Counted from the stretch's first letter, positions 403 to 14,317 are shown. The stretch is 64,000 nucleotides of DNA from an uncultured delta proteobacterium (GCA_963767925.1 CAVYGB010000008.1:1184001-1248000); one strand, 5' to 3'. Notes: generated by a model not told the origin, from the letters alone. Numbers and translations: made by a program.

Positions 403-1617
403 ATGCGTAAGGCTTCACTCGGCACGTTGTTCCTGACTGTCTTTCTCGACCTGCTCGGTTTCGGGCTGGTTGTCCCGTTCCTTCCGGGGGTGGCCCGCGA
501 TCACGGGGCGAGCGACTTCGTGGCGACCCTGCTGGCTGCCTCGTTCTCGCTGATGCAGTTCCTGTTCATCCCCCTGTGGGGGCGGCTGTCGGATCGGGTC
601 GGGCGGCGGCCGGTGCTGCTCTTCAGCATTGCCGCATCGGCAGTCGGGATGGCCATGCTGGGGTTTGCCCGCTCGCTGACCCTCCTTTTCGTGGCCCGGC
701 TGTGGAGCGGGGTGGCCACCGCCAACATCGCGGTGGCCCAGGCCTACATCGCCGACGTGACCACCCCCGACACGCGGGCCAAGGGGATGGGCATCATCGG
801 CATGGGCTTCGGGCTGGGGTTCATCGTGGGGCCCTTCGTGGGGGGCGAGCTGGGCCGCTTCGAGGTGATGGGCCAGGAGGGGACCCTGGCCGCCTTCACC
901 GCCGCCGGGCTCTCGGTGATCAATCTCGTCCTGGCGCTCGTCACCTTGCCCGAGTCGTTGCCCCGCGAGCGGCGGGGCCAGCCCGGGAGCCACCGGCGCA
1001 TCCTCGACATCCAGGCCATCCGTCAGGTCTCGCGTCTGCCCGGCATGGCGGTCGCGGTGGCGATCAGCTTCTTCGTGATCTTCTGGTTCTCGGGGCTGGA
1101 GGTGACCTTCCGGCTGTTCACCGAGGACGCCTTTGCCATGACCGTGGCCGAGACCGGTCGGGTCTTCGCCTTCGTGGGGGTGGTGGCGGTCATCGTACAG
1201 GGGGGCCTCATCCACCGCCTGTCCCGGCGCTACGGCGAGGTGAAGCTGATCCGCGCCGGGGTGGCCCTGCTGGCGGCCGGCTTCGCTCTCGACGCCCTCA
1301 GCCCCAGCTTCGGCCGCTGGCTGCTGTTCGTGGCCTCCGCCTTCGTCGCCGCCGGCAACGGCCTGTACAACCCCAGCCTGTCGAGCTACTCGTCTCGCCA
1401 GGCCAGCGCCGAGACCCAGGGGCTCACCCTCGGCGTCATCCAGTCGCTGGCCGCGCTGGCCCGGGTCCTGGGTCCCCCCGTGGGGGGGCTGGCCTACGAG
1501 CTGGTCGGCATGCGCGGCCCCTACGTCATCGGGGCCATCGGGCTGCTGGCAGTGTTCGTCCTGTCCTACCGCCTGGCGCCCGTCCGCCGGCCGGCGGTCA
1601 GCCCCGCGCCTGCTTGA
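403..1617 (+). CDS. MFS transporter, TetA/DHA1-like
   Basis: 404 aa, about 12 hydrophobic segments, motif A GRLSDRVGRRPVLL, AYIADVT, GFIVGPFVGG. Confidence 0.9.
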   Translation: MRKASLGTLFLTVFLDLLGFGLVVPFLPGVARDHGASDFVATLLAASFSLMQFLFIPLWGRLSDRVGRRPVLLFSIAASAVGMAMLGFARSLTLLFVARLWSGVATANIAVAQAYIADVTTPDTRAKGMGIIGMGFGLGFIVGPFVGGELGRFEVMGQEGTLAAFTAAGLSVINLVLALVTLPESLPRERRGQPGSHRRILDIQAIRQVSRLPGMAVAVAISFFVIFWFSGLEVTFRLFTEDAFAMTVAETGRVFAFVGVVAVIVQGGLIHRLSRRYGEVKLIRAGVALLAAGFALDALSPSFGRWLLFVASAFVAAGNGLYNPSLSSYSSRQASAETQGLTLGVIQSLAALARVLGPPVGGLAYELVGMRGPYVIGAIGLLAVFVLSYRLAPVRRPAVSPAPA

Positions 1618-2245
1618 GCACCTCGAGGTAGCGGGCCGTCCGTTCGGCGATCACGGCGGTCCGCCCCTCGCGCAGGGCCTTCAGGTCCACGAGGTCTCCG
1701 CCCACCCCCAGGGCGGCCGCCCCCGCCTGGATGAACGAGGCGGCGGTGTCGACCGAGACGCCGCCGGTGGGGACGAGCTCGATGTGGGGCAAGGGAGCCT
1801 TGATGTTCTTGATATACGAGGCGCCCCCCACCGAGCTGACCGGGAAGACCTTGACCATATCGGCTCCGGCTTTCCAGGCCGCCATGATCTCGGTGGGGGT
1901 GAGGGCCCCCGGAAGGACCGGAACGCCGGCCGCCCGGCAGAAGGCCACCGTCTCGACGTCCAGGCCGGGGCTCACGATGAAACGGGCGCCGGCGTCGATG
2001 CAGGCCTGGGCCGCCCGGGCGTCGAGCACCGTCCCGGCCCCGACAACCACCCGATCGCCGAGGCGCCGCCCGAGCTTGCCGATGACGTCGGTGGCGTCGG
2101 GAACGGTCAGCGTGATCTCGAGGACGGTGATGCCCGCCGCCACCAGGGCGTCGGAGATGGCGAGGGCCTCGTCTGCCGTCGGGGTGCGCACGACGGGGAT
2201 GAGCAGCCCCGCGCGGATCCGGGCCAGCGTTTGCGTCTTGTCCAT
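1598..2245 (-). CDS. eda: KDPG/KHG aldolase
   Basis: EITLT, VGAGTV, FIVSPG, TPTE, VKVFP, PTGGV motifs. Confidence 0.95.
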   Translation of the reverse strand: MDKTQTLARIRAGLLIPVVRTPTADEALAISDALVAAGITVLEITLTVPDATDVIGKLGRRLGDRVVVGAGTVLDARAAQACIDAGARFIVSPGLDVETVAFCRAAGVPVLPGALTPTEIMAAWKAGADMVKVFPVSSVGGASYIKNIKAPLPHIELVPTGGVSVDTAASFIQAGAAALGVGGDLVDLKALREGRTAVIAERTARYLEVLKQARG

Positions 2246-2257
2246 GGTTGACCTCGC

Positions 2258-3364
2258 TCAGCGCGACACGCGCGCGCTGCCTCCCTTCATGACCTTCAGG
2301 ACCTCGTCCAGGGTAGCCATGCTCGTGTCGCCGGGGGTGGTCATCGCCAGCGCGCCGTGGGCGGCGCCGCAGTCGACGGCGAACTGGGCGCCCCGCCCCG
2401 ACAGAAAGCCGTAGATGAGGCCGGAGGCGAAGGAGTCTCCGCCGCCCACCCGGTCGTGGATCTCGAGGTCCTCGCGGAGGGAGGCCAAGAAGAAGTCGTC
2501 CCCGAACGAGCAGATGGCCCCCCAGTCGTTCCGGGTGGCGGTCTTGGCGTTGCGCAGGGTGGTCGCCACCACCTGGAAGTTCGCGTACTGCGACCGGGCG
2601 AGCTGGATCATCTTCTTGAAGTTGGTGGGGTCGAGGGCGGCGAAGTTCTCGTCGACCCCCTCGACGTGCAGACCCAGGCAGGCCGTGAAGTCCTCCTCGT
2701 TGCCGAGCATGACGTCGACGTAGCTGGCCAGCTTCTGGTTGACCTCCTTGGCCTTGGCCGCCCCACCCACGCCCTTCCAGAGCGAGTCGCGGTAGTTGAG
2801 GTCGTAAGAGACGATGGTGCCGTGGCGCTTGGCGGCCTGCATGGCCTCCTGGGCCACCGCCGGGGTGGTCTCGGAGAGGGCGGCGAAGATGCCGCCGGTG
2901 TGGAACCAGCGTACGCCCTCCTGCCCGAACAGCTTCTCCCAGTCGATATCCCCGGGCTTGAGCTGCGAGGCCGCGGTGTGGCCCCGGTCGGAGCAGCCGA
3001 CGGCGGCCCGCACCCCGAAGCCCCGCTCGGTGAAGTTGAGGCCGTTGCGAACGGTGCGACCGACGCCGTCGTATTTCATCCAGCGGACGTAGCGCTGATC
3101 GACGCCCCCCTGATAGATGAGGTCCTGGATCAGGCGCCCCACCGGGTTGTCGGCGAAGGCCGTCACCACCGCGGTGTCGAGGCCGAAGCAGCGCCGCAGA
3201 CCCCGGGCGACGTTGTATTCACCGCCGCCCTCCCAGGCCTGGAAGGTGCGGGTGGTGGCGACCCGTCCGTCGCCGGGATCCAGGCGCAACATGACTTCGC
3301 CGAGGGAGACGAGGTCCCACTGGCAGCGATCTTTGGGCTTGATTGCGAGCTGAGCGGTTGCCAT
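2258..3364 (-). CDS. kdgK: 2-keto-3-deoxygluconate kinase (PfkB family)
   Basis: GEVMLRL, GGGEYNVA, SYDLNYR, DRVGGGDSF; directly upstream of eda; start at ATG 3364 (MATAQL). Confidence 0.9.
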   Translation of the reverse strand: MATAQLAIKPKDRCQWDLVSLGEVMLRLDPGDGRVATTRTFQAWEGGGEYNVARGLRRCFGLDTAVVTAFADNPVGRLIQDLIYQGGVDQRYVRWMKYDGVGRTVRNGLNFTERGFGVRAAVGCSDRGHTAASQLKPGDIDWEKLFGQEGVRWFHTGGIFAALSETTPAVAQEAMQAAKRHGTIVSYDLNYRDSLWKGVGGAAKAKEVNQKLASYVDVMLGNEEDFTACLGLHVEGVDENFAALDPTNFKKMIQLARSQYANFQVVATTLRNAKTATRNDWGAICSFGDDFFLASLREDLEIHDRVGGGDSFASGLIYGFLSGRGAQFAVDCGAAHGALAMTTPGDTSMATLDEVLKVMKGGSARVSR

Positions 3365-3419
3365 GCAGGGGCGGACAATACAAGATCCGCCGCCGGGCGG
3401 GCCCCGAAAAGCTCTCCGT

Positions 3420-3755
3420 TCAGGGCTTGGAAGGCCGCAGCTTGATCTCGCTGCTGGTGGCCTCTGACGTAACGGTTCCGTCGTCGTTGGGCCGGAACCG
3501 GATCTCCGCCTTGACCTCGACCACCATCTTCGAGAGCGCCTTGCGCAGCTCCGTGTCGAGCTCGAGGTGATCGAGCCAGCCTCGGATCTCGGATGTCGCG
3601 ATGCGGACGAAGTCCTCCTTGGACCGACCCGCGGCCTCCATCCCTGCCGCCACGGCGCGCCGAACGAACTCGGAGATCCCGCCCTCGCGCGCAGCCCCTT
3701 CGCCCGGCGCCTCCCCGGCCGGGGGCGCCCCGTCCTTGGCCGATTCGTCACCCAT
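3420..3755 (-). CDS. Small conserved-looking hypothetical protein (111 aa, helical, weakly phasin-like)
   Basis: C-terminal part of ORF 3420..5219 from ATG 3755 (MGDESAK...EFVRRAVAAG...VEVKAEIRF); GC3-rich codon usage. Confidence 0.65.
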   Translation of the reverse strand: MGDESAKDGAPPAGEAPGEGAAREGGISEFVRRAVAAGMEAAGRSKEDFVRIATSEIRGWLDHLELDTELRKALSKMVVEVKAEIRFRPNDDGTVTSEATSSEIKLRPSKP

Positions 3756-3863
3756 GGCTTTCACATTAGCACCGCCGAAGTGCCGGATCCGCGACGTCTC
3801 GAGCGGGCCGCGGCCCATCCCGCGGTGCGGCCGCCGCCGCCCGGTTTCGGCTATGCTGACCCG

Positions 3864-5696
3864 GTGCCTGTGGCGCGGGAGAAGACCGACGACCCGAGCC
3901 CCGACGTGCTGGTCCCCCCGGCCCCGGTGCCCGAGGGGGAACCTGCGCCCCGGCGCCTGACCCCGGCCGGGCCGGAGCAGGCCGGAGTCCGGGTCTCCGG
4001 GACCAGCCACACCTGGCGACGCCTCTTCCGGGCCTATGCCACCACCGTCCAGATCGCGGCGTCCTACCTGTGGCTGGCGTTGCAGCGCCGGTTTCGCCTG
4101 CCCGAGCGGATGGAGGCGCTGACCACCGCCGCCCACCGGCGCAATGCCCGGCGGGCCCGGACGGCCATCGTCGACCTGCAGGGTCTTTTCATCAAGGTGG
4201 GACAGCTCATCAGCATCATGGCGAACTTCCTGCCCGAAGCCTTCCGGCGCGAGCTGGAGGGCCTGCAGGACCAGGTGCCGCCCCGGCCCTACCAGGACAT
4301 CGAGGCGCGGCTGCGCGAGGAGTTCGGAGGGCGCACGCCCGGCCAGGTCTTCGCTGAGTTCGACCCCGACCCGATCGCCTCCGCCTCGATCGGGCAGGTC
4401 CACGTGGCCCGACTGCGCAACGGGGAGAAGGTGGCGGTCAAGGTCCAGTACCCCGACATCGAGGAGATCGTCCGCACCGACCTGCGGGCCCTCCGCCGCA
4501 TCTTCGGGCTGCTCGGGCACTTCATGCCCGAGTGGGGCTTCGACACCATCTACCGCGAGATCCGGGAGATGGTGCTGGCGGAGCTGGATTACCGGGCCGA
4601 GGCGGAGGCCCTGCGCCAGATCGGGCTCAACTTCAAGGGGCGCAGCGACGTGCTGCTGCCCCGGGTGATCGCCGAGTTCTCGACGGCCCGGGTGCTCACC
4701 ACCGAGTGGATGGACGGCACCAAGATCGCCGACCTGCCGCGGCTGGCCGCGGAGGCCATCGACCAGCGGCGGGCGGCCCGCCTGGTGGTCGAGGCCTACT
4801 GCCAGCAGATCTTCATCGACGGCATCTATCACGCCGATCCCCACCCCGGGAACCTGCTGCTGCGCCCGGGCGCCCGCCCCGGGGACGGGCCGACTCTGGT
4901 CTTCCTCGACTTCGGCGCCACCGCCGAGGTGTCGCAGACCATGCGCAAGGGCATGGTCTCCTTCCTTCAGGGGGCCATCACCCGCGACACCGCCCGTATC
5001 GTCTCGGCCATGAAGGACATGGGCTTCATCTCCCGGCGGGCCAATCCCGAGGTGTTCGACCGGGTGGTGGCCTACTTCCACGATCGGCTCCGCTCGCAGC
5101 TCCGGGTGGAGGGCTTCTCGCTCAAGGACATCCGCTTCGAGCCGGAGGCCAAGCTGGCGAGCCTGCTCGACCTGCGTGAGCTGAACGTTTCGCTGTCCGA
5201 CCTGCGCGACTCCTTTCACGTCCCCAAGGAGTGGGTGCTGCTGGAGCGGACGCTGCTGCTGCTGCTGGGCGTGTGCACCACCCTCGATCCGGAGATGAAC
5301 CCGCTCGAGTCGATCCAGCCCTACGTCGAGAAGTTCATGCTCGGCGAGAAGAAGCAGTGGTCGGAGGCCTTCGTGGAGGCCTCACGCGAGGCGGCCTTCT
5401 CCGCGCTGACCTTGCCGGCGGAACTGGGGCGCTTCCTGGCCACCTCGGCCCGGGGCGATCTGGCGATCCGTCCGTCGGGGCTCGACGAGGGGGTGCGCGC
5501 CCTGTACGCGGTCTTCCAGCAGCTGCTCTGGGGCGGCCTGGGCGCCACCGCGGCCATCCTCGCGGTCATCTTCGATGGCCGGGGTCAGACCACCGCCCGA
5601 GGCTTCGCCATCGCCGCCGGCGCCCTCTGCGCGGTCTTGCTTTTTGCATGTCTGCTGAAGGGTGGGCGCGCAACCCGCACCCGATCCCGACGCTGA
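3864..5696 (+). CDS. ABC1/UbiB/AarF family atypical kinase; start uncertain (GTG 3864 or 3870)
   Basis: IKVGQ, LQDQVPP, PIASASIGQVH, VAVKVQYP, ELDY, HADPHPGN, LDFG; two C-terminal TM helices. Confidence 0.92.
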   Translation: MPVAREKTDDPSPDVLVPPAPVPEGEPAPRRLTPAGPEQAGVRVSGTSHTWRRLFRAYATTVQIAASYLWLALQRRFRLPERMEALTTAAHRRNARRARTAIVDLQGLFIKVGQLISIMANFLPEAFRRELEGLQDQVPPRPYQDIEARLREEFGGRTPGQVFAEFDPDPIASASIGQVHVARLRNGEKVAVKVQYPDIEEIVRTDLRALRRIFGLLGHFMPEWGFDTIYREIREMVLAELDYRAEAEALRQIGLNFKGRSDVLLPRVIAEFSTARVLTTEWMDGTKIADLPRLAAEAIDQRRAARLVVEAYCQQIFIDGIYHADPHPGNLLLRPGARPGDGPTLVFLDFGATAEVSQTMRKGMVSFLQGAITRDTARIVSAMKDMGFISRRANPEVFDRVVAYFHDRLRSQLRVEGFSLKDIRFEPEAKLASLLDLRELNVSLSDLRDSFHVPKEWVLLERTLLLLLGVCTTLDPEMNPLESIQPYVEKFMLGEKKQWSEAFVEASREAAFSALTLPAELGRFLATSARGDLAIRPSGLDEGVRALYAVFQQLLWGGLGATAAILAVIFDGRGQTTARGFAIAAGALCAVLLFACLLKGGRATRTRSRR

Positions 5697-5748
5697 TCCT
5701 CTTGCCGGCAGCCCCCCGGGAGCCTACACTGCGCCGACGCGTGAACCG

Positions 5749-6861
5749 ATGGCGCGTGAATCCACGTCCAGTACCCGCGGCTCCGGCACCCGAGAGCCTA
5801 CTCGCACACCTGTAGCGACGCCGAGCGTTGGCATCTACGACGCCTTCACGGTGGGCGATCTCACCGCGATCCGGAACCTGCTCCGCGGCGGTTCGGTGAT
5901 CGACTGGCACCGCGTGTATTTCACTGACCGCGCCGAGGTCGACCGTTTCCTGCGCGTGAACGAGTTCGATCCGGAGAGTGACGCCGACATGGGCCGGCTG
6001 GACAGCCTGCGCCAGGAGGCGGTCGAATATCTCGAGCGACACCTCGACGTACATATCCCCGAGGAGGTCGCCGACGGAATCCCGGCTCGCGATCTCTTCC
6101 TCGTCGCCTCCCAGAAGGGCAAGCGGCGCACACCGGCCTGCATCGTCCTCAAGGTCATGCACGTGCTCAACCACCTCGGCGGACGGGAGCTGCTCACCCG
6201 CCTGCCGGTGAGCTCGGACCAGATCTTCCACCTCGTGGAGGAGAAGGTCCTGCGTACGGTGGAGGAGATGAAAGAGGCGGGGCTGGGCGTGATCGAGTTC
6301 GAATGGAGCCGCAAACATGCCGACAGCCTGATTACCAAGCTCCTCGCCAAGAAGGAGAACATCGCGGCCGATGTTTACGATCGGCTGCGTTTCCGGATGG
6401 TCACCAATTCCGAACACCAGCTCATGCTGGTATTGCGCGAGGTCACGCAACGGCTGGTCCCCTTCAACTACGTCGTTCCCGGGCAATCCCAGAACGGGAT
6501 CATCCAGCTGCGGGAGGTGGTCGAGTCGTCGCCCGCGCTGGCCCCCTTCCTCCCGGATCTGCTCGATCTCTCGAACGTCGCCGCGGACAAGGGACCGGCG
6601 CCCTCCAACGAGTTTTCCGGACCGAGCTACCGGGTGATCAACTTCGTCGCCGACCTGCCGGTCCGCATCGATCGGTACCTGGGGCGGCCCGCCGACGACC
6701 CGTTGTTCTCCGAGACCGGGGCGGTGGTCTTCGTCCTGACGGAGTTCCAGATCATTGACGCGCGGACCGCCGACGACAACGAAAACGGCGAGAACAGCCA
6801 CAATCGCTACAAGGAACGCCAGCTCAACCGGGTGCGGACCCGGCTGATGCACGGGTCCTGA
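5749..6861 (+). CDS. TIGR04552-like myxobacterial protein with RelA/SpoT synthetase-like motifs
   Basis: LRGGSVIDWHR, SRKHADSLITKLL, DVYDRLRFRMV, PFNYVVPGQSQN, NEFSGPSYRVINFVADLPVR, EFQI, SHNRYKERQ. Confidence 0.8.
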   Translation: MARESTSSTRGSGTREPTRTPVATPSVGIYDAFTVGDLTAIRNLLRGGSVIDWHRVYFTDRAEVDRFLRVNEFDPESDADMGRLDSLRQEAVEYLERHLDVHIPEEVADGIPARDLFLVASQKGKRRTPACIVLKVMHVLNHLGGRELLTRLPVSSDQIFHLVEEKVLRTVEEMKEAGLGVIEFEWSRKHADSLITKLLAKKENIAADVYDRLRFRMVTNSEHQLMLVLREVTQRLVPFNYVVPGQSQNGIIQLREVVESSPALAPFLPDLLDLSNVAADKGPAPSNEFSGPSYRVINFVADLPVRIDRYLGRPADDPLFSETGAVVFVLTEFQIIDARTADDNENGENSHNRYKERQLNRVRTRLMHGS

Positions 6862-7226
6862 CGGCTCCGGGCGCGCGACGTCGACGCACCCCCCCGCTCG
6901 CGGCGAGCGCGAGCCTCGTCCGCGAGCCATGCCTCGCGCCCGCCCGGTGGCCGCTTGGCGCTCGCAGCGTCGCCCGAGCAAGTCGCCAAAACAGCGGCGA
7001 CGGCGAGGCGCTTTTGGTGGTAAAAGTTGGGTAGCCCGCATGGAGATCCACGACCCATGTTGAAACCGTCGGGAGCTGGTCTGGGAGGCGGGAGGTGCTG
7101 GGCAAAAGGGCGTCCAACGGGTCCGAAGTTCGGGCACGCGAGCGAGTCGCCGAGTCAAATAGACCAGCCGCCGCGCGGGCTTTGCCGGTGGCGACGCCAC
7201 ATGATATCTGCTACGTTGCCGCGCGT

Positions 7227-10019
7227 ATGCTACAAGGGCCTACAGCCGTGTCAGGATCGGGGGGGTTTCCTCGAGCCTTCGGCTCTGTAGTCCTGCTGAG
7301 GCCTCTGTCCCGCGATCCGCGGACGGAGGTGTTCTTGGCGCTTCGTGCCGAGGGCGCGGATCGCCTTTGCGTCGTCACGTTCCTCGGGTCGTCGCTGGTG
7401 TCGAGCGGGCGGGTCGTCGATGCTCTGCGCGCCCAGGCGACCTGGCTGGTTGGGCGCGTCCACGGGAACCTCGTCCAGATCTACGACGTCGGACAATCGG
7501 GCGAGCAGCTCTTCTTCGTCAGTGAATATGTCGAGGGCGCCGACGTGGCCGCCCTGCTCGGTCGCGCCGGCGCGCTGAGCGTGGGCATGGCCCTGCACCT
7601 GGCCCTCGAATTCGGCGAGGCGCTCTCGTTCGTCCGCGGCCAGGAGGAGGCCGCCACCGGCGTGCGGACCCAGGTAGCCGGCCTCTCGGCGGCCTCGCTG
7701 ATGCTCGCCCGCGACGGGAAGGTCAAGCTCCTGCACCCCGGCTCCGGTCTCTCGGCGGCCCTGGAGACACTCCCGGGTCGGGGCCCCGGGGTGGCCTCCC
7801 TGGTGCCACCCGAGGACCTGGCCGGCGCCTCTCCGGCGGGAGACGTCTACGCGGTCGGCGCCCTGCTCTGGCAGATGTTGACCGGGCGACCGCTGGGCGG
7901 ATCGGACGCCGCCGCCCACCTGACCGAGCTGCGCGCGGGCCGTTTTTCGCCCCGTTCTCCTGCCTCCGTGACCGGAGCGCAGCGGGAGATCCCCGAGGAG
8001 CTCACCCGCCTCGTGCTGGCGGCGCTCTCCCCCTCCCCGGAGGCCCGGCCGGCCACCCAGACCTTCCGCACCGAGCTCGCCGCGGTGATGCGGACCCTGT
8101 CCGACGGGGACGAGCGGGCAGTTCGCCGTCTGGTTGTCGACACCTTCAGCGCCGAGCTGGCGGCGGACGCCACCGAGCTGGCGCGCCTGACCGCGGCCGC
8201 CTCGCGGCCCGTCGAGACCGGGCCCCAGCCTCCCGCCCTCACCCTCACAAACATCTCGGGGGTTCGCCGCCGCCGCCCGGCGGAGACCGAGCTGGTCCCC
8301 GGTCAGGCCATCGCCGGCACCCGCTACCGCGCCCTCGAGAAGCTGGGCGAGGGGGGCATGGGCGCGGTCTACCTGGCCGAACACGTGGACATCGAGCGGA
8401 AGGTGGCGCTCAAGCTCCTGCACAGCGACCTGGTTCAGAACCCGCTGGTGCTCCGCCAGTTCCGGCAGGAGGCGCGGGCGGCTTCCCGGATCGGCAACCC
8501 CTACATCTGCGACGTGACCGACTGGGGCGAGGTCGAGGACGGCCGCGTCTTCTTCGTCATGGAATACCTCGACGGCGCCTCGCTCGGCACCGTGCTCAAG
8601 GAAGAGCGCCGGTTCACGCCCGCCCGGATGATCCCCATCGTCCGGCAGGTGGCCAAGGCCCTCGGCGCCGCCCACGAAAAGGGGATCGTCCACCTCGACG
8701 TCAAGCCCGACAACGTCATCCTCATCGAGAAGGACAGCCGGCAAGACTCGGTCAAGGTCGTGGATTTCGGCATCGCCGGCCTGCTGGGGCAAGGGTCGTC
8801 GGGGGGCAAGGTGATGGGGACGCCCGAATACATGGCGCCCGAGCGGGCCCAGGGCCTCGGGTACGACCACCGCAGCGACATCTATTCGCTCGGCGTGATG
8901 GCCTACGAGATGCTCGTGGGGGAGGTCCCCTTGCAGGGCAGCGCCGCCGTCGAGACCCTCGCCATGCAGGTCGACGAGCAGCCGGACCGGATCAACGAGC
9001 GGCTCACCGAGCCCATCCCCGAGAAGATCGAAGCGCTCATCATGCGCATGCTCGAGAAGGACGCCAGCCGCCGGCCCCAGAACATGGCCGAGGTGGAGGC
9101 GCGTCTCATCGAGGCCCAGCTCGAGGCCCGCATCCAGACCCTGTGGGACGAGGAGCTCACCCTGCCGCCGATGGATCCGGACCGGGCGGCTCGCATCGCC
9201 CGCCGGCTCTCGCCCGAGCCACGCAGCGCCCGTCTATACCTGGCGGTGGCCTCCAGCGTGGCGGCCCTCAGCGTGACCCTCGCGATCTTCTTCGCGACCC
9301 GGGACTCCGAATCGAGCGCGGACGCGCGCCCGGGCCTGCTCGAGCGGGCCCAGATCGTCTCTCCCCCCGCCGCCGCCGCCGCGCCCCGCAGCGAGCCGGC
9401 TCCCCTGGCGGTCGAGAGTCCCACCCCCCTGCCGGCGCCCACCCCGATTCCGCCGCCCGCCCCCGCCGAGGCCCCCCCGCCCGAGCCGACGGCGCCGGTC
9501 GTGGTGGCCCCCACCACCACCCCGCCGGCCGCCCGCTTCGCCACCGACGCCCGCAGCCGGATCCGGCGGGCCTTGCCGCCCCCGCCCCAGACCCAGCCGG
9601 CGCCGACCCTGCCGCCGCAACCACCGGCGGTGGTCCGCGATCCCGGCCGGGCGCGCGTCCACATCAACCGGGGGACGGCGGCGCTGACCGCCGGGCGGGT
9701 GACCCAGGCGGAGAACGAGTTCACGTCGGCGGTGAGCTTCGATCCTCACAACCCGGAGGCGTTCGTGGGGCTGGCCGACGCCCAGTTCGAGAACGCCAAC
9801 TACAAGGCCGCGCTGGCCTCGGCCCGCCGGGCGATCCGATTGAAGTACGCTGGCTTCAAACCCTACGTGCTGGCCGGACACGCCCACATGAAGCGGGGCG
9901 AGTTTCGCCAGGCGGTCGAGGCGTACACCGACGCCGCCCGCATCGCGCCCTACGATTCGTCGATCCAGGAGTACATCGTCAAGGCGCGGGGCAAGCTCGG
10001 CAGCTCCGAGGGCGGCGTC

Positions 10020-10037
<18 letters not shown>
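7227..10037 (+). CDS. Membrane Ser/Thr protein kinase: degenerate kinase domain + intact Hanks kinase + TM + Pro-rich linker + TPRs; start uncertain (7095 or 7227)
   Basis: Second domain has GEGGMG, VALK, HLDVKPDN, DFG, GTPEYMAPE, DIYSLG; first domain keeps HGNLVQIYDVG and DVYAVG but lacks the catalytic motifs. Confidence 0.9.

Positions 10038-14317
<4,280 letters not shown>

Follow-up and report, generated by a model that had tools for sequence, protein, structure and literature searches.

TIGR04552 proteins of Myxococcota appear to form a divergent RelA/SpoT-type synthetase subfamily with a rebuilt acceptor pocket

We analysed a stretch of 64,000 nucleotides from an uncultured delta proteobacterium (GCA_963767925.1, CAVYGB010000008.1:1184001-1248000; the whole stretch is referred to as the window, and positions are counted from its first letter), concentrating on a gene of the TIGR04552 family located close to its beginning. 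Judged by its sequences, the TIGR04552 family is a distinct and unstudied subfamily of RelA/SpoT homologues (RSHs), with an N-terminal domain of its own and an apparently rebuilt acceptor pocket. A preliminary description, made from the DNA alone, had read the gene product as a divergent stand-alone RelA/SpoT-type nucleotide synthetase, and this reading is supported by sequence profiles, by profile-profile alignment and by comparison of the predicted fold. The gene and the parts of its product are as follows:

5749-6861, + strand: TIGR04552-family gene, 370 amino acids (aa); from the list of open reading frames (ORFs), translation and NCBIfam
5749-5847, + strand: residues 1-33, N-terminal tail, modelled with low confidence, probably disordered, unconserved
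5851-6201, + strand: residues 35-151, family-specific all-helical N-domain with invariant K135 (model)
6205-6852, + strand: residues 153-368, domain with the predicted RelA/SpoT-type synthetase (pyrophosphokinase) fold

Residues are numbered from the ATG at 5749; an alternative in-frame start, a GTG, is present at 5662 (ORF list; translation of 5662-6861). The NCBIfam model TIGR04552 scores the protein at 344.3 bits, the cut-off being 125, with residues 37-367 corresponding to profile positions 4-351 of 352, and the sister model TIGR04562 is matched equally (328 bits), so that the window protein is a full-length member. The family is large: of the 8,000 candidates examined, 2,996 proteins scored E ≤ 0.001, and there are 772 clusters at 50% identity. 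Conservation was counted over the 73 members of alignment A1, which consists of the window protein and 72 full-length representatives sharing 29-64% identity with it.

The Pfam family RelA_SpoT (PF04607) matches residues 189-235 of the window protein at profile positions 4-49 with 17.6 bits (E = 0.0048). When the A1 members were scanned one at a time, 30 of the 73 matched PF04607 at E ≤ 0.01 (best E = 4.2e-6), and no further Pfam family was shared by two or more of them. A PF04607 scan of 61 genomes of the phylum returned three weak matches that are TIGR04552-type ORFs, one of which, with 29.2 bits over profile positions 4-112, exceeds the PF04607 cut-off of 27. Searching a protein atlas returned just the family's own clusters, in one of which PF04607 is annotated on 11% of the members. 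The RSH link is latent in databases, in the form of borderline Pfam matches on a minority of members.

A single-sequence search of the PDB with the window protein gave nothing relevant. The A1 profile, run against all PDB sequences, matched only B. subtilis RelP (6fgk, E = 0.017) and S. aureus Rel (7oiw, E = 0.036), and in these matches the synthetase motifs Syn1/2, Syn3 and Syn4 align as separate stretches. Aligning A1 by hhalign with 29 long-RSH synthetase domains from genomes of the same phylum (alignment A2) gave a probability of 90.2% (E = 1.5e-6), and the 151 aligned columns take in all four motifs. Because of this E-value, and because both PDB profile matches are RSH synthetases, the motif resemblance exceeds chance. 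With A1 as input, AlphaFold2 produced a confident single-body model (mean predicted local distance difference test score, pLDDT, 91.1; predicted template modelling score, pTM, 0.88). Foldseek comparison of the model with the PDB yielded nine matches at E ≤ 0.001, all to RelP or RelQ, and among the matches listed (to rank 50) every one is an RSH protein. An exhaustive and Foldseek-independent VIA-align run over 48,161 chains placed RSH synthetases at all of ranks 1-10, namely, in this order, RelQ (5dec; 145 residues, 3.2 Å, score 9.4), RelP (6fgk; 9.2), Rel (8acu; 9.2), RelP (6ewz; 9.1), Rel (6yxa; 7.5), RelA (7.4), SpoT (6.3), an exported Streptomyces small alarmone synthetase (SAS; 5.9), CapRel (5.3) and Tas1 (5.1). 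The RelA-type fold on which the preliminary description depended is thus what both structure searches return at the top. We consider the RSH-synthetase fold and homology of the protein to be near the limit of computational certainty. Another activity known from the Pol-beta fold, transfer of a nucleoside monophosphate by a nucleotidyltransferase instead of pyrophosphate by a pyrophosphokinase, appears to us very unlikely for this domain.

The four motifs of the preliminary description are present in the translation in the order that it gave (residues 187-202, 208-218, 291-299 and 331-356). It had also reported the absence of HD hydrolase and TGS/ACT domains and the presence of a distinct N-terminal region, and both observations were borne out. 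No HD, TGS or ACT domain matched the window protein in the Pfam scan at E ≤ 1, no membrane segments are predicted, and fused homologues of at least 649 aa were not found, the latter being weak evidence. The N-terminal region is real and consists of two parts: residues 1-33 are probably disordered (mean pLDDT over the first 30 residues is 46-72, and homologue alignments begin at about residue 30-37), whereas residues 35-151 form a helical domain in the AlphaFold2 model, with helices at 35-46, 61-70, 78-98, 105-108, 113-121 and 127-151. K135 of this domain is kept in all 73 members. Structure comparison of residues 35-151 gave no convincing match to any known fold. The idea that the protein binds RNA was considered and dropped, since the window protein is acidic (isoelectric points 5.9 and 5.5) and the corresponding family medians are 6.7 and 8.3, so that the family has no consistent basic surface.

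The donor (ATP/Mg) side of the predicted active site is made up of three of the motifs:

6304-6354, + strand: Syn1-like WSRKHADSLITKLLAKK, residues 186-202, with predicted ATP-phosphate contacts K189, S193, K197 and K201
6370-6402, + strand: Syn2-like DVYDRLRFRMV, residues 208-218, with predicted Mg-binding D211, adenine-stacking R216 and family-specific R214
6739-6816, + strand: Syn4-like TEFQIIDARTADDNENGENSHNRYKE, residues 331-356, with predicted catalytic E332, Q334, D337, N344 and H351-x-x-Y354-K355

The string quoted earlier as Syn1-like, SRKHADSLITKLLAKK, corresponds to residues 187-202. In the hhalign comparison the Syn1 positions align with GRxKxxxSxxxK of long RSHs, D211 and R216 with the invariant D105 and R110 of the 29 long RSHs, and E332 with their invariant E165; R214 (71/73), specific to the family, is close to the Syn2 stacking position. 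Both the A1 search of the PDB and hhalign align the Syn4-like motif with EVQIRT...AAHWRYKE. Within this motif E332 is conserved in 72 of the 73 members, Q334 in 69, D337 in 72, N344 in 72, H351 in 68, Y354 in 70 and K355 in 67, D337 and N344 being family-specific. Hence the D (D211, 70/73), E and H-x-x-Y-K residues that the preliminary description had singled out as essential to its reading are all well conserved, and by structural alignment of the model we infer that the conserved residues probably lie near one pocket.

The ATP site of RelP provides a reference for these positions. According to the available part of the RelP study (Steinchen et al., PMC5794853), the adenine is sandwiched by R78 and R112, the ribose is met by H190, the phosphates are contacted by K80, S84, K88 and R91, Mg is liganded by D107 and E174, and a G-loop Tyr serves the guanosine substrate. 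Taken over through the hhalign register, these residues correspond to the following positions of the window protein (conservation over the 73 members):

RelP K80 (phosphate): K189, 71/73
RelP S84 (phosphate): S193, 66/73
RelP K88 (phosphate): K197, 68/73
RelP R91 (phosphate): K201, shifted by one, 60/73
RelP D107 (Mg): D211, 70/73
RelP R112 (adenine stacking): R216, 67/73
RelP E174 (Mg): E332, 72/73
RelP H190 (ribose): H351, 68/73
RelP G-loop Tyr (guanosine stacking): Y294, Tyr in 53 and Phe in 18 of 73

This pattern bears on whether the protein could be a non-catalytic pseudo-enzyme, which would bind nucleotides in a regulatory role and sense ATP or an alarmone. Such a role would be compatible with the displacement of the first adenine-stacking Arg and with the remodelled acceptor site, both described below. 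Against it, D211 (70/73), E332 (72/73) and the K/S/K set of phosphate contacts are kept in sequences down to 29% identity, which argues for selection for catalysis on the active site, and we regard a pseudo-enzyme as quite unlikely. The TIGR04552 protein is likely an active pyrophosphokinase.

The acceptor side presents a different picture. Two stretches are concerned:

6460-6495, + strand: family-specific PFNYVVPGQSQN, residues 238-249, replacing the RSH P.PGRFKD acceptor segment (hhalign)
6607-6645, + strand: NEFSGPSYRVINF, residues 287-299, equivalent of the G-loop/Syn3, with an aromatic residue at 294

The first of these, in which P238 (71/73), N240 (66/73), P244 (64/73) and N249 (70/73) are conserved, is set by hhalign opposite WTP-VPGR...FKD of long RSHs. 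In the second, which includes the Syn3-like string GPSYRVINF (residues 291-299), N287 is found in 63 of the 73 members, at a position where long RSHs have an invariant Asn, and position 294 (Tyr in 53, Phe in 18) is matched to the unvarying Tyr of YQSLH in long RSHs. The 29 long RSHs keep the RFKD segment, K145, S151 and H153 with little or no variation, and none of these has a conserved counterpart in the 73 members according to hhalign and conservation: the positions facing the acceptor-phosphate residues, Q246, R255, E256, P285, V296 and N298, all fall short of 80% conservation. Instead, the family conserves N240, P244, N249, N287, S290, P304 (73/73), R306, D337 and N344. The preliminary description had noted that the Syn3 His is replaced by Asn; this is true of the window protein (N298) but not a family trait, Asn being present in just 43 of the 73 members. 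Judging from the alignments, the predicted acceptor pocket is remodelled more broadly than by this single Asn swap. The RxKD segment, the Lys of PKxN and the Ser and His of YxSxH are the residues that we take to hold the phosphates of GDP or GTP.

The loss of these residues has to be weighed against the most conventional alternative, in which the protein is an ordinary divergent SAS that makes (p)ppGpp from ATP and GDP or GTP and supplements the single long Rel of the genome. The nearest folds, RelQ, RelP and Rel, are indeed (p)ppGpp synthetases, an aromatic residue (Tyr or Phe) occupies the G-loop position in 71 of the 73 members, N287 matches the invariant Asn of long RSHs, and the window genome has just one canonical long RSH. 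Speaking against such an enzyme are the lack of conservation in the TIGR04552 family of K145, H153 and RFKD, all invariant in the 29 long RSHs, and the extra N-domain, which has no RSH counterpart. In RSHs, Lys and Arg residues of that pocket grip the GTP phosphates, as stated in the available part of PMC7983052. On balance, we find ordinary (p)ppGpp synthesis unlikely. Because the basic residues for the GDP/GTP phosphates are missing, the acceptor and the product are probably not handled as in (p)ppGpp synthesis; an acceptor other than GDP or GTP is plausible, and the acceptor, and hence the product, may be a different molecule.

The interpretation that we favour, without tipping the balance beyond evens, is a soluble cytoplasmic enzyme of the RSH superfamily that combines a synthetase-type pyrophosphokinase domain with a helical N-domain of its own and handles its acceptor unlike (p)ppGpp synthetases. 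Fold, homology and conservation of the donor site are observed, and from them we infer binding of ATP-Mg in the manner of RelP and RelQ. In such an enzyme, the C-terminal 215 residues would form the pyrophosphokinase domain, against which the helical domain would pack from the N-terminal side. K189, S193, K197 and K201 would lie on the phosphates of ATP, the metal would be held by D211 and E332, R216 would stack on the adenine and H351 would touch the ribose. The beta,gamma-pyrophosphate would then be passed to a hydroxyl of an acceptor stacked on the aromatic residue 294, the basic holders of the GDP/GTP 5'-phosphates being replaced by N240, S247, N249, N287, S290, D302, R306, D337 and N344.

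Several points weigh against this interpretation. The counterpart of the first stacking Arg (RelP R78, the R of GRxK) is Ser187, and the adjacent R188 is present in only 39 of the 73 members; ATP binding is therefore perhaps somewhat different, and the binding mode of the family may differ to some extent from that of RelP. The retained aromatic G-loop residue and N287 leave room for GDP or GTP as the acceptor. The window protein's own RelA_SpoT score of 17.6 bits lies below the gathering cut-off of 27. Finally, a fold match alone is no proof of function.

The distribution of the gene bears on its role. Of the 201 genomes sampled from the phylum, 132 contain TIGR04552. Within the window's class it was detected in 37 of 38 genomes (the window's own genome left out), and in none of 14 control genomes of other phyla. 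All 41 genomes of the window's order carry the gene, at 65-77% identity and as a single match in 37. Of the four order genomes with two matches, G222 and G234 have one gene split across frames and G115 has a gene split over two adjacent ORFs; only in G215 is there a true second copy. The window genome has one TIGR04552 copy and, elsewhere, one canonical long RSH of 724 aa. A search with the single window protein found relatives in public metagenome-assembled genomes (MAGs) assigned to Myxococcota, Myxococcales, Kofleriaceae and Haliangiales. In view of this single-copy, widespread pattern, the TIGR04552 gene is a vertically inherited housekeeping or regulatory gene, not a toxin.

The same pattern decides against a toxic SAS (toxSAS) belonging to a toxin-antitoxin or defence module. 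The toxSAS enzymes are of interest because recent work on them has revealed two further activities of this fold, synthesis of (p)ppApp and pyrophosphorylation of tRNA. We rejected this explanation, whose probability we consider negligible, on distribution (132 of 201 phylum genomes and all 41 of the order, with one match in 37 and 65-77% identity). Moreover, the two neighbours on each side of 18 loci include no conserved small partner, no cluster of neighbours exceeding four; the 234-bp spacer downstream of the gene holds no listed ORF of at least 100 aa; and housekeeping RSHs fit the fold far better than toxSASs. A promoter and terminator scan gave nothing usable on the + strand 3' of the gene, and Rfam had no match in window positions 3000-10500.

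The RelA_SpoT scan of the phylum also detected other proteins of the superfamily. Ordinary SAS-like ORFs (64-75 bits) are present in 6 of the 61 genomes. In addition, several phylum genomes have a second ORF of about 720-770 aa with a weak, partial RelA_SpoT match of 27-43 bits (G054:C43, G018:C1, G060:C8, G030:C2, G048:C194, G036:C16, G042:C1 and G024:C1); these ORFs may encode another long RSH paralogue, one whose synthetase domain has degenerated.

In the window the gene lies between two kinase genes on the same strand, as the preliminary description had stated and as Pfam and membrane prediction bear out:

3567-5696, + strand: ABC1/UbiB-family atypical kinase, 709 aa, upstream neighbour (Pfam ABC1, 1.6e-71)
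7095-10037, + strand: membrane Ser/Thr kinase, 980 aa, downstream neighbour (Pfam Pkinase, 3e-59, and TPR families)

The ABC1 kinase has two predicted C-terminal membrane segments (residues 653-671 and 675-700), and the Ser/Thr kinase has one (residues 713-736). The latter has two regions that match kinase domains (residues ~59-318 and 410-671), and the membrane segment is followed by a Pro/Ala-rich linker and C-terminal TPR repeats; this protein may be a tandem pseudokinase-kinase receptor.

A signalling locus had been proposed from these neighbours, and the proposal holds in part. Within the order, 28 of 40 genomes have the ABC1 orthologue no more than 3 kb upstream in the same orientation. 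Of the rest, nine, which belong to a single genus, carry the two genes on separate contigs, one has no orthologue, and two give no information because the contig ends. The Ser/Thr-kinase orthologue lies directly downstream in only 5 of 40. In a Kofleriaceae-like group (~50% identity), 30 of the 39 loci with enough flank have the ABC1 orthologue upstream in the same orientation, at a mean gap of 2.8 kb and with at least one opposite-strand gene between it and the TIGR04552 gene; in 27 of 36 loci a Ser/Thr kinase domain, convergent in every case, occurs no more than 3 kb downstream. Beyond these groups the ABC1 linkage is not seen: among 20 loci from other families of the phylum none has ABC1 within 7 kb, and a kinase is found within 7 kb in eight. 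In L043, L045, L047 and L058 the kinase is the immediately adjacent convergent gene, and it carries a PEGA domain in three of the four, none being matched in L047. For comparison, the window genome has 122 kinase domains, or one per 76.5 kb, so that on one chosen side of a random point a kinase would be expected to begin within 3 kb with a probability of 0.038. Since non-orthologous kinases recur beside the gene against this background, the adjacency is suggestive, a lead and not a finding, for it was counted post hoc in few, related lineages. No neighbour conserved across the phylum was found among the two genes on either side of the 18 loci mentioned above (largest cluster, 4).

Several other features of these loci were observed. 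Upstream in the window (403-5696), an MFS transporter gene, a KDPG aldolase gene (-), a PfkB sugar kinase gene (-) and the ABC1 kinase gene follow one another, and this order is kept in the closest public MAG loci (L063-L066). Downstream, a long ORF on the - strand (9979-13062), whose product carries a DEAD/H-associated domain and is Lhr-helicase-like, converges on the Ser/Thr kinase gene and overlaps its end; an ORF with this domain is also located downstream in L064-L066. Two or three tandem convergent Ser/Thr kinase genes directly follow the TIGR04552 gene in Kofleriaceae-like loci L069, L071, L073, L079, L084, L087, L093, L100, L101 and others. Directly upstream in Kofleriaceae-like loci there is a conserved opposite-strand gene of ~305 aa that has no Pfam match (L100, 4817-5731, - strand; L069, 4804-5730, - strand), recognised by a third-position GC content (GC3) of 0.91-0.92; the ORFs between the ABC1 and TIGR04552 genes in these loci had no Pfam match. 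A Lon protease gene divergently adjoins the TIGR04552 gene upstream in L043, L045 and L046, of the same class, and an M16 peptidase gene adjoins it in L056 and L058.

The preliminary description had given the family as one annotated without a function, and the family is uncharacterised. In the available part of a transposon study, MXAN_4858, near the G1 gliding cluster, shows a weak fitness pattern resembling that of glt (gliding-motility) genes (bioRxiv 10.64898/2026.08.28.747804), and a mutation in a Bdellovibrio TIGR04552 gene is recorded in the part available of PMC9888234; RSHs are not mentioned with TIGR04552 in those parts of either source. Searches on TIGR04562, MXAN_4858, the alarmone synthetases of Bdellovibrio and Myxococcus and the Myxococcales RSH superfamily found no relevant literature, and no statement of a TIGR04552-RSH link was found in the literature searched. 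The RSH census published by Jimmy et al. in 2020 (PMC7229694, Dataset sd02, available entries) lists no synthetase-only RSH for 14 of 30 Myxococcales genomes, among them Haliangium, Anaeromyxobacter and three Myxococcus species, and none for B. bacteriovorus; for the other 16 Myxococcales genomes it gives 'Rel[S]', 'MixRel[S]' or 'AaRel[S]'. Three family-specific motifs used as probes are absent from the available representative alignments of this census (sd05). Some of its 'Rel[S]' entries may be TIGR04552 proteins that cross the detection threshold. Identity with 'MixRel' was considered and rejected, this being a mixed-taxon group in which the first 19 of 50 entries lack the family motifs (PMC7229694). 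The available tables of Atkinson et al. 2011 (PMC3153485) contain no matching subgroup.

RSH enzymes have a key part in how bacteria cope with stress, and (p)ppGpp triggers the starvation-induced development of myxobacteria. A conserved, apparently catalytic RSH-like enzyme with a rebuilt pocket, present in most sampled Myxococcota and not seen in the available part of the main RSH census, is for these reasons a candidate for a new nucleotide signal; myxobacteria with TIGR04552 probably have an extra nucleotide-signal enzyme. The sole phenotype that we found in print, in the part of the transposon study cited above, is the weak, gliding-gene-like effect of M. xanthus MXAN_4858. A bolder extension, which we put forward as speculative and doubtful in its entirety, is that Myxococcota have, throughout the phylum, a vertically inherited pyrophosphokinase of the RSH type that makes a non-(p)ppGpp signalling nucleotide or pyrophosphorylates a non-nucleotide acceptor, is controlled by its N-domain and is wired to Ser/Thr-kinase signalling. 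If this is true, social and predatory bacteria would possess a second-messenger system that has so far escaped notice.

Compared with known systems, the window protein is closest in fold to RelQ (SAS1/YjbM) and RelP (SAS2/YwaC) of Firmicutes (5dec, 6fgk, 6ewz), with which it shares just 14-20% identity. SASs of this type are single-domain proteins of ~200-250 aa forming homotetramers, whereas the 370-aa window protein has an extra helical N-domain of 120 residues and a 50-residue insertion between Syn2 and Syn3, lacks the acceptor-phosphate ligands and has the first stacking Arg displaced. Long RSHs (Rel/RelA/SpoT; 8acu, 6yxa, 5l3p, 7qps) possess HD, TGS and ACT domains, which are absent here; in the TIGR04552 family, R-T of their EIQIRT corresponds to a hydrophobic residue followed by D337, and their PGRFKD and PKxNGYQSLH to PGxSxN and NEFSGxxYRxxNF. 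CapRel (7ztb), a tRNA pyrophosphokinase, Tas1 (6ox6), a (p)ppApp synthetase, and FaRel2 (8pu1) match the fold far more weakly than RelQ, RelP and Rel do, and they are sporadic toxins with an immunity or antitoxin partner, in contrast to the single-copy, vertically inherited and partnerless TIGR04552 gene. From other members of the TIGR04552/TIGR04562 family, such as M. xanthus MXAN_4858, the window protein shows no difference in kind, being a full-length orthologue.

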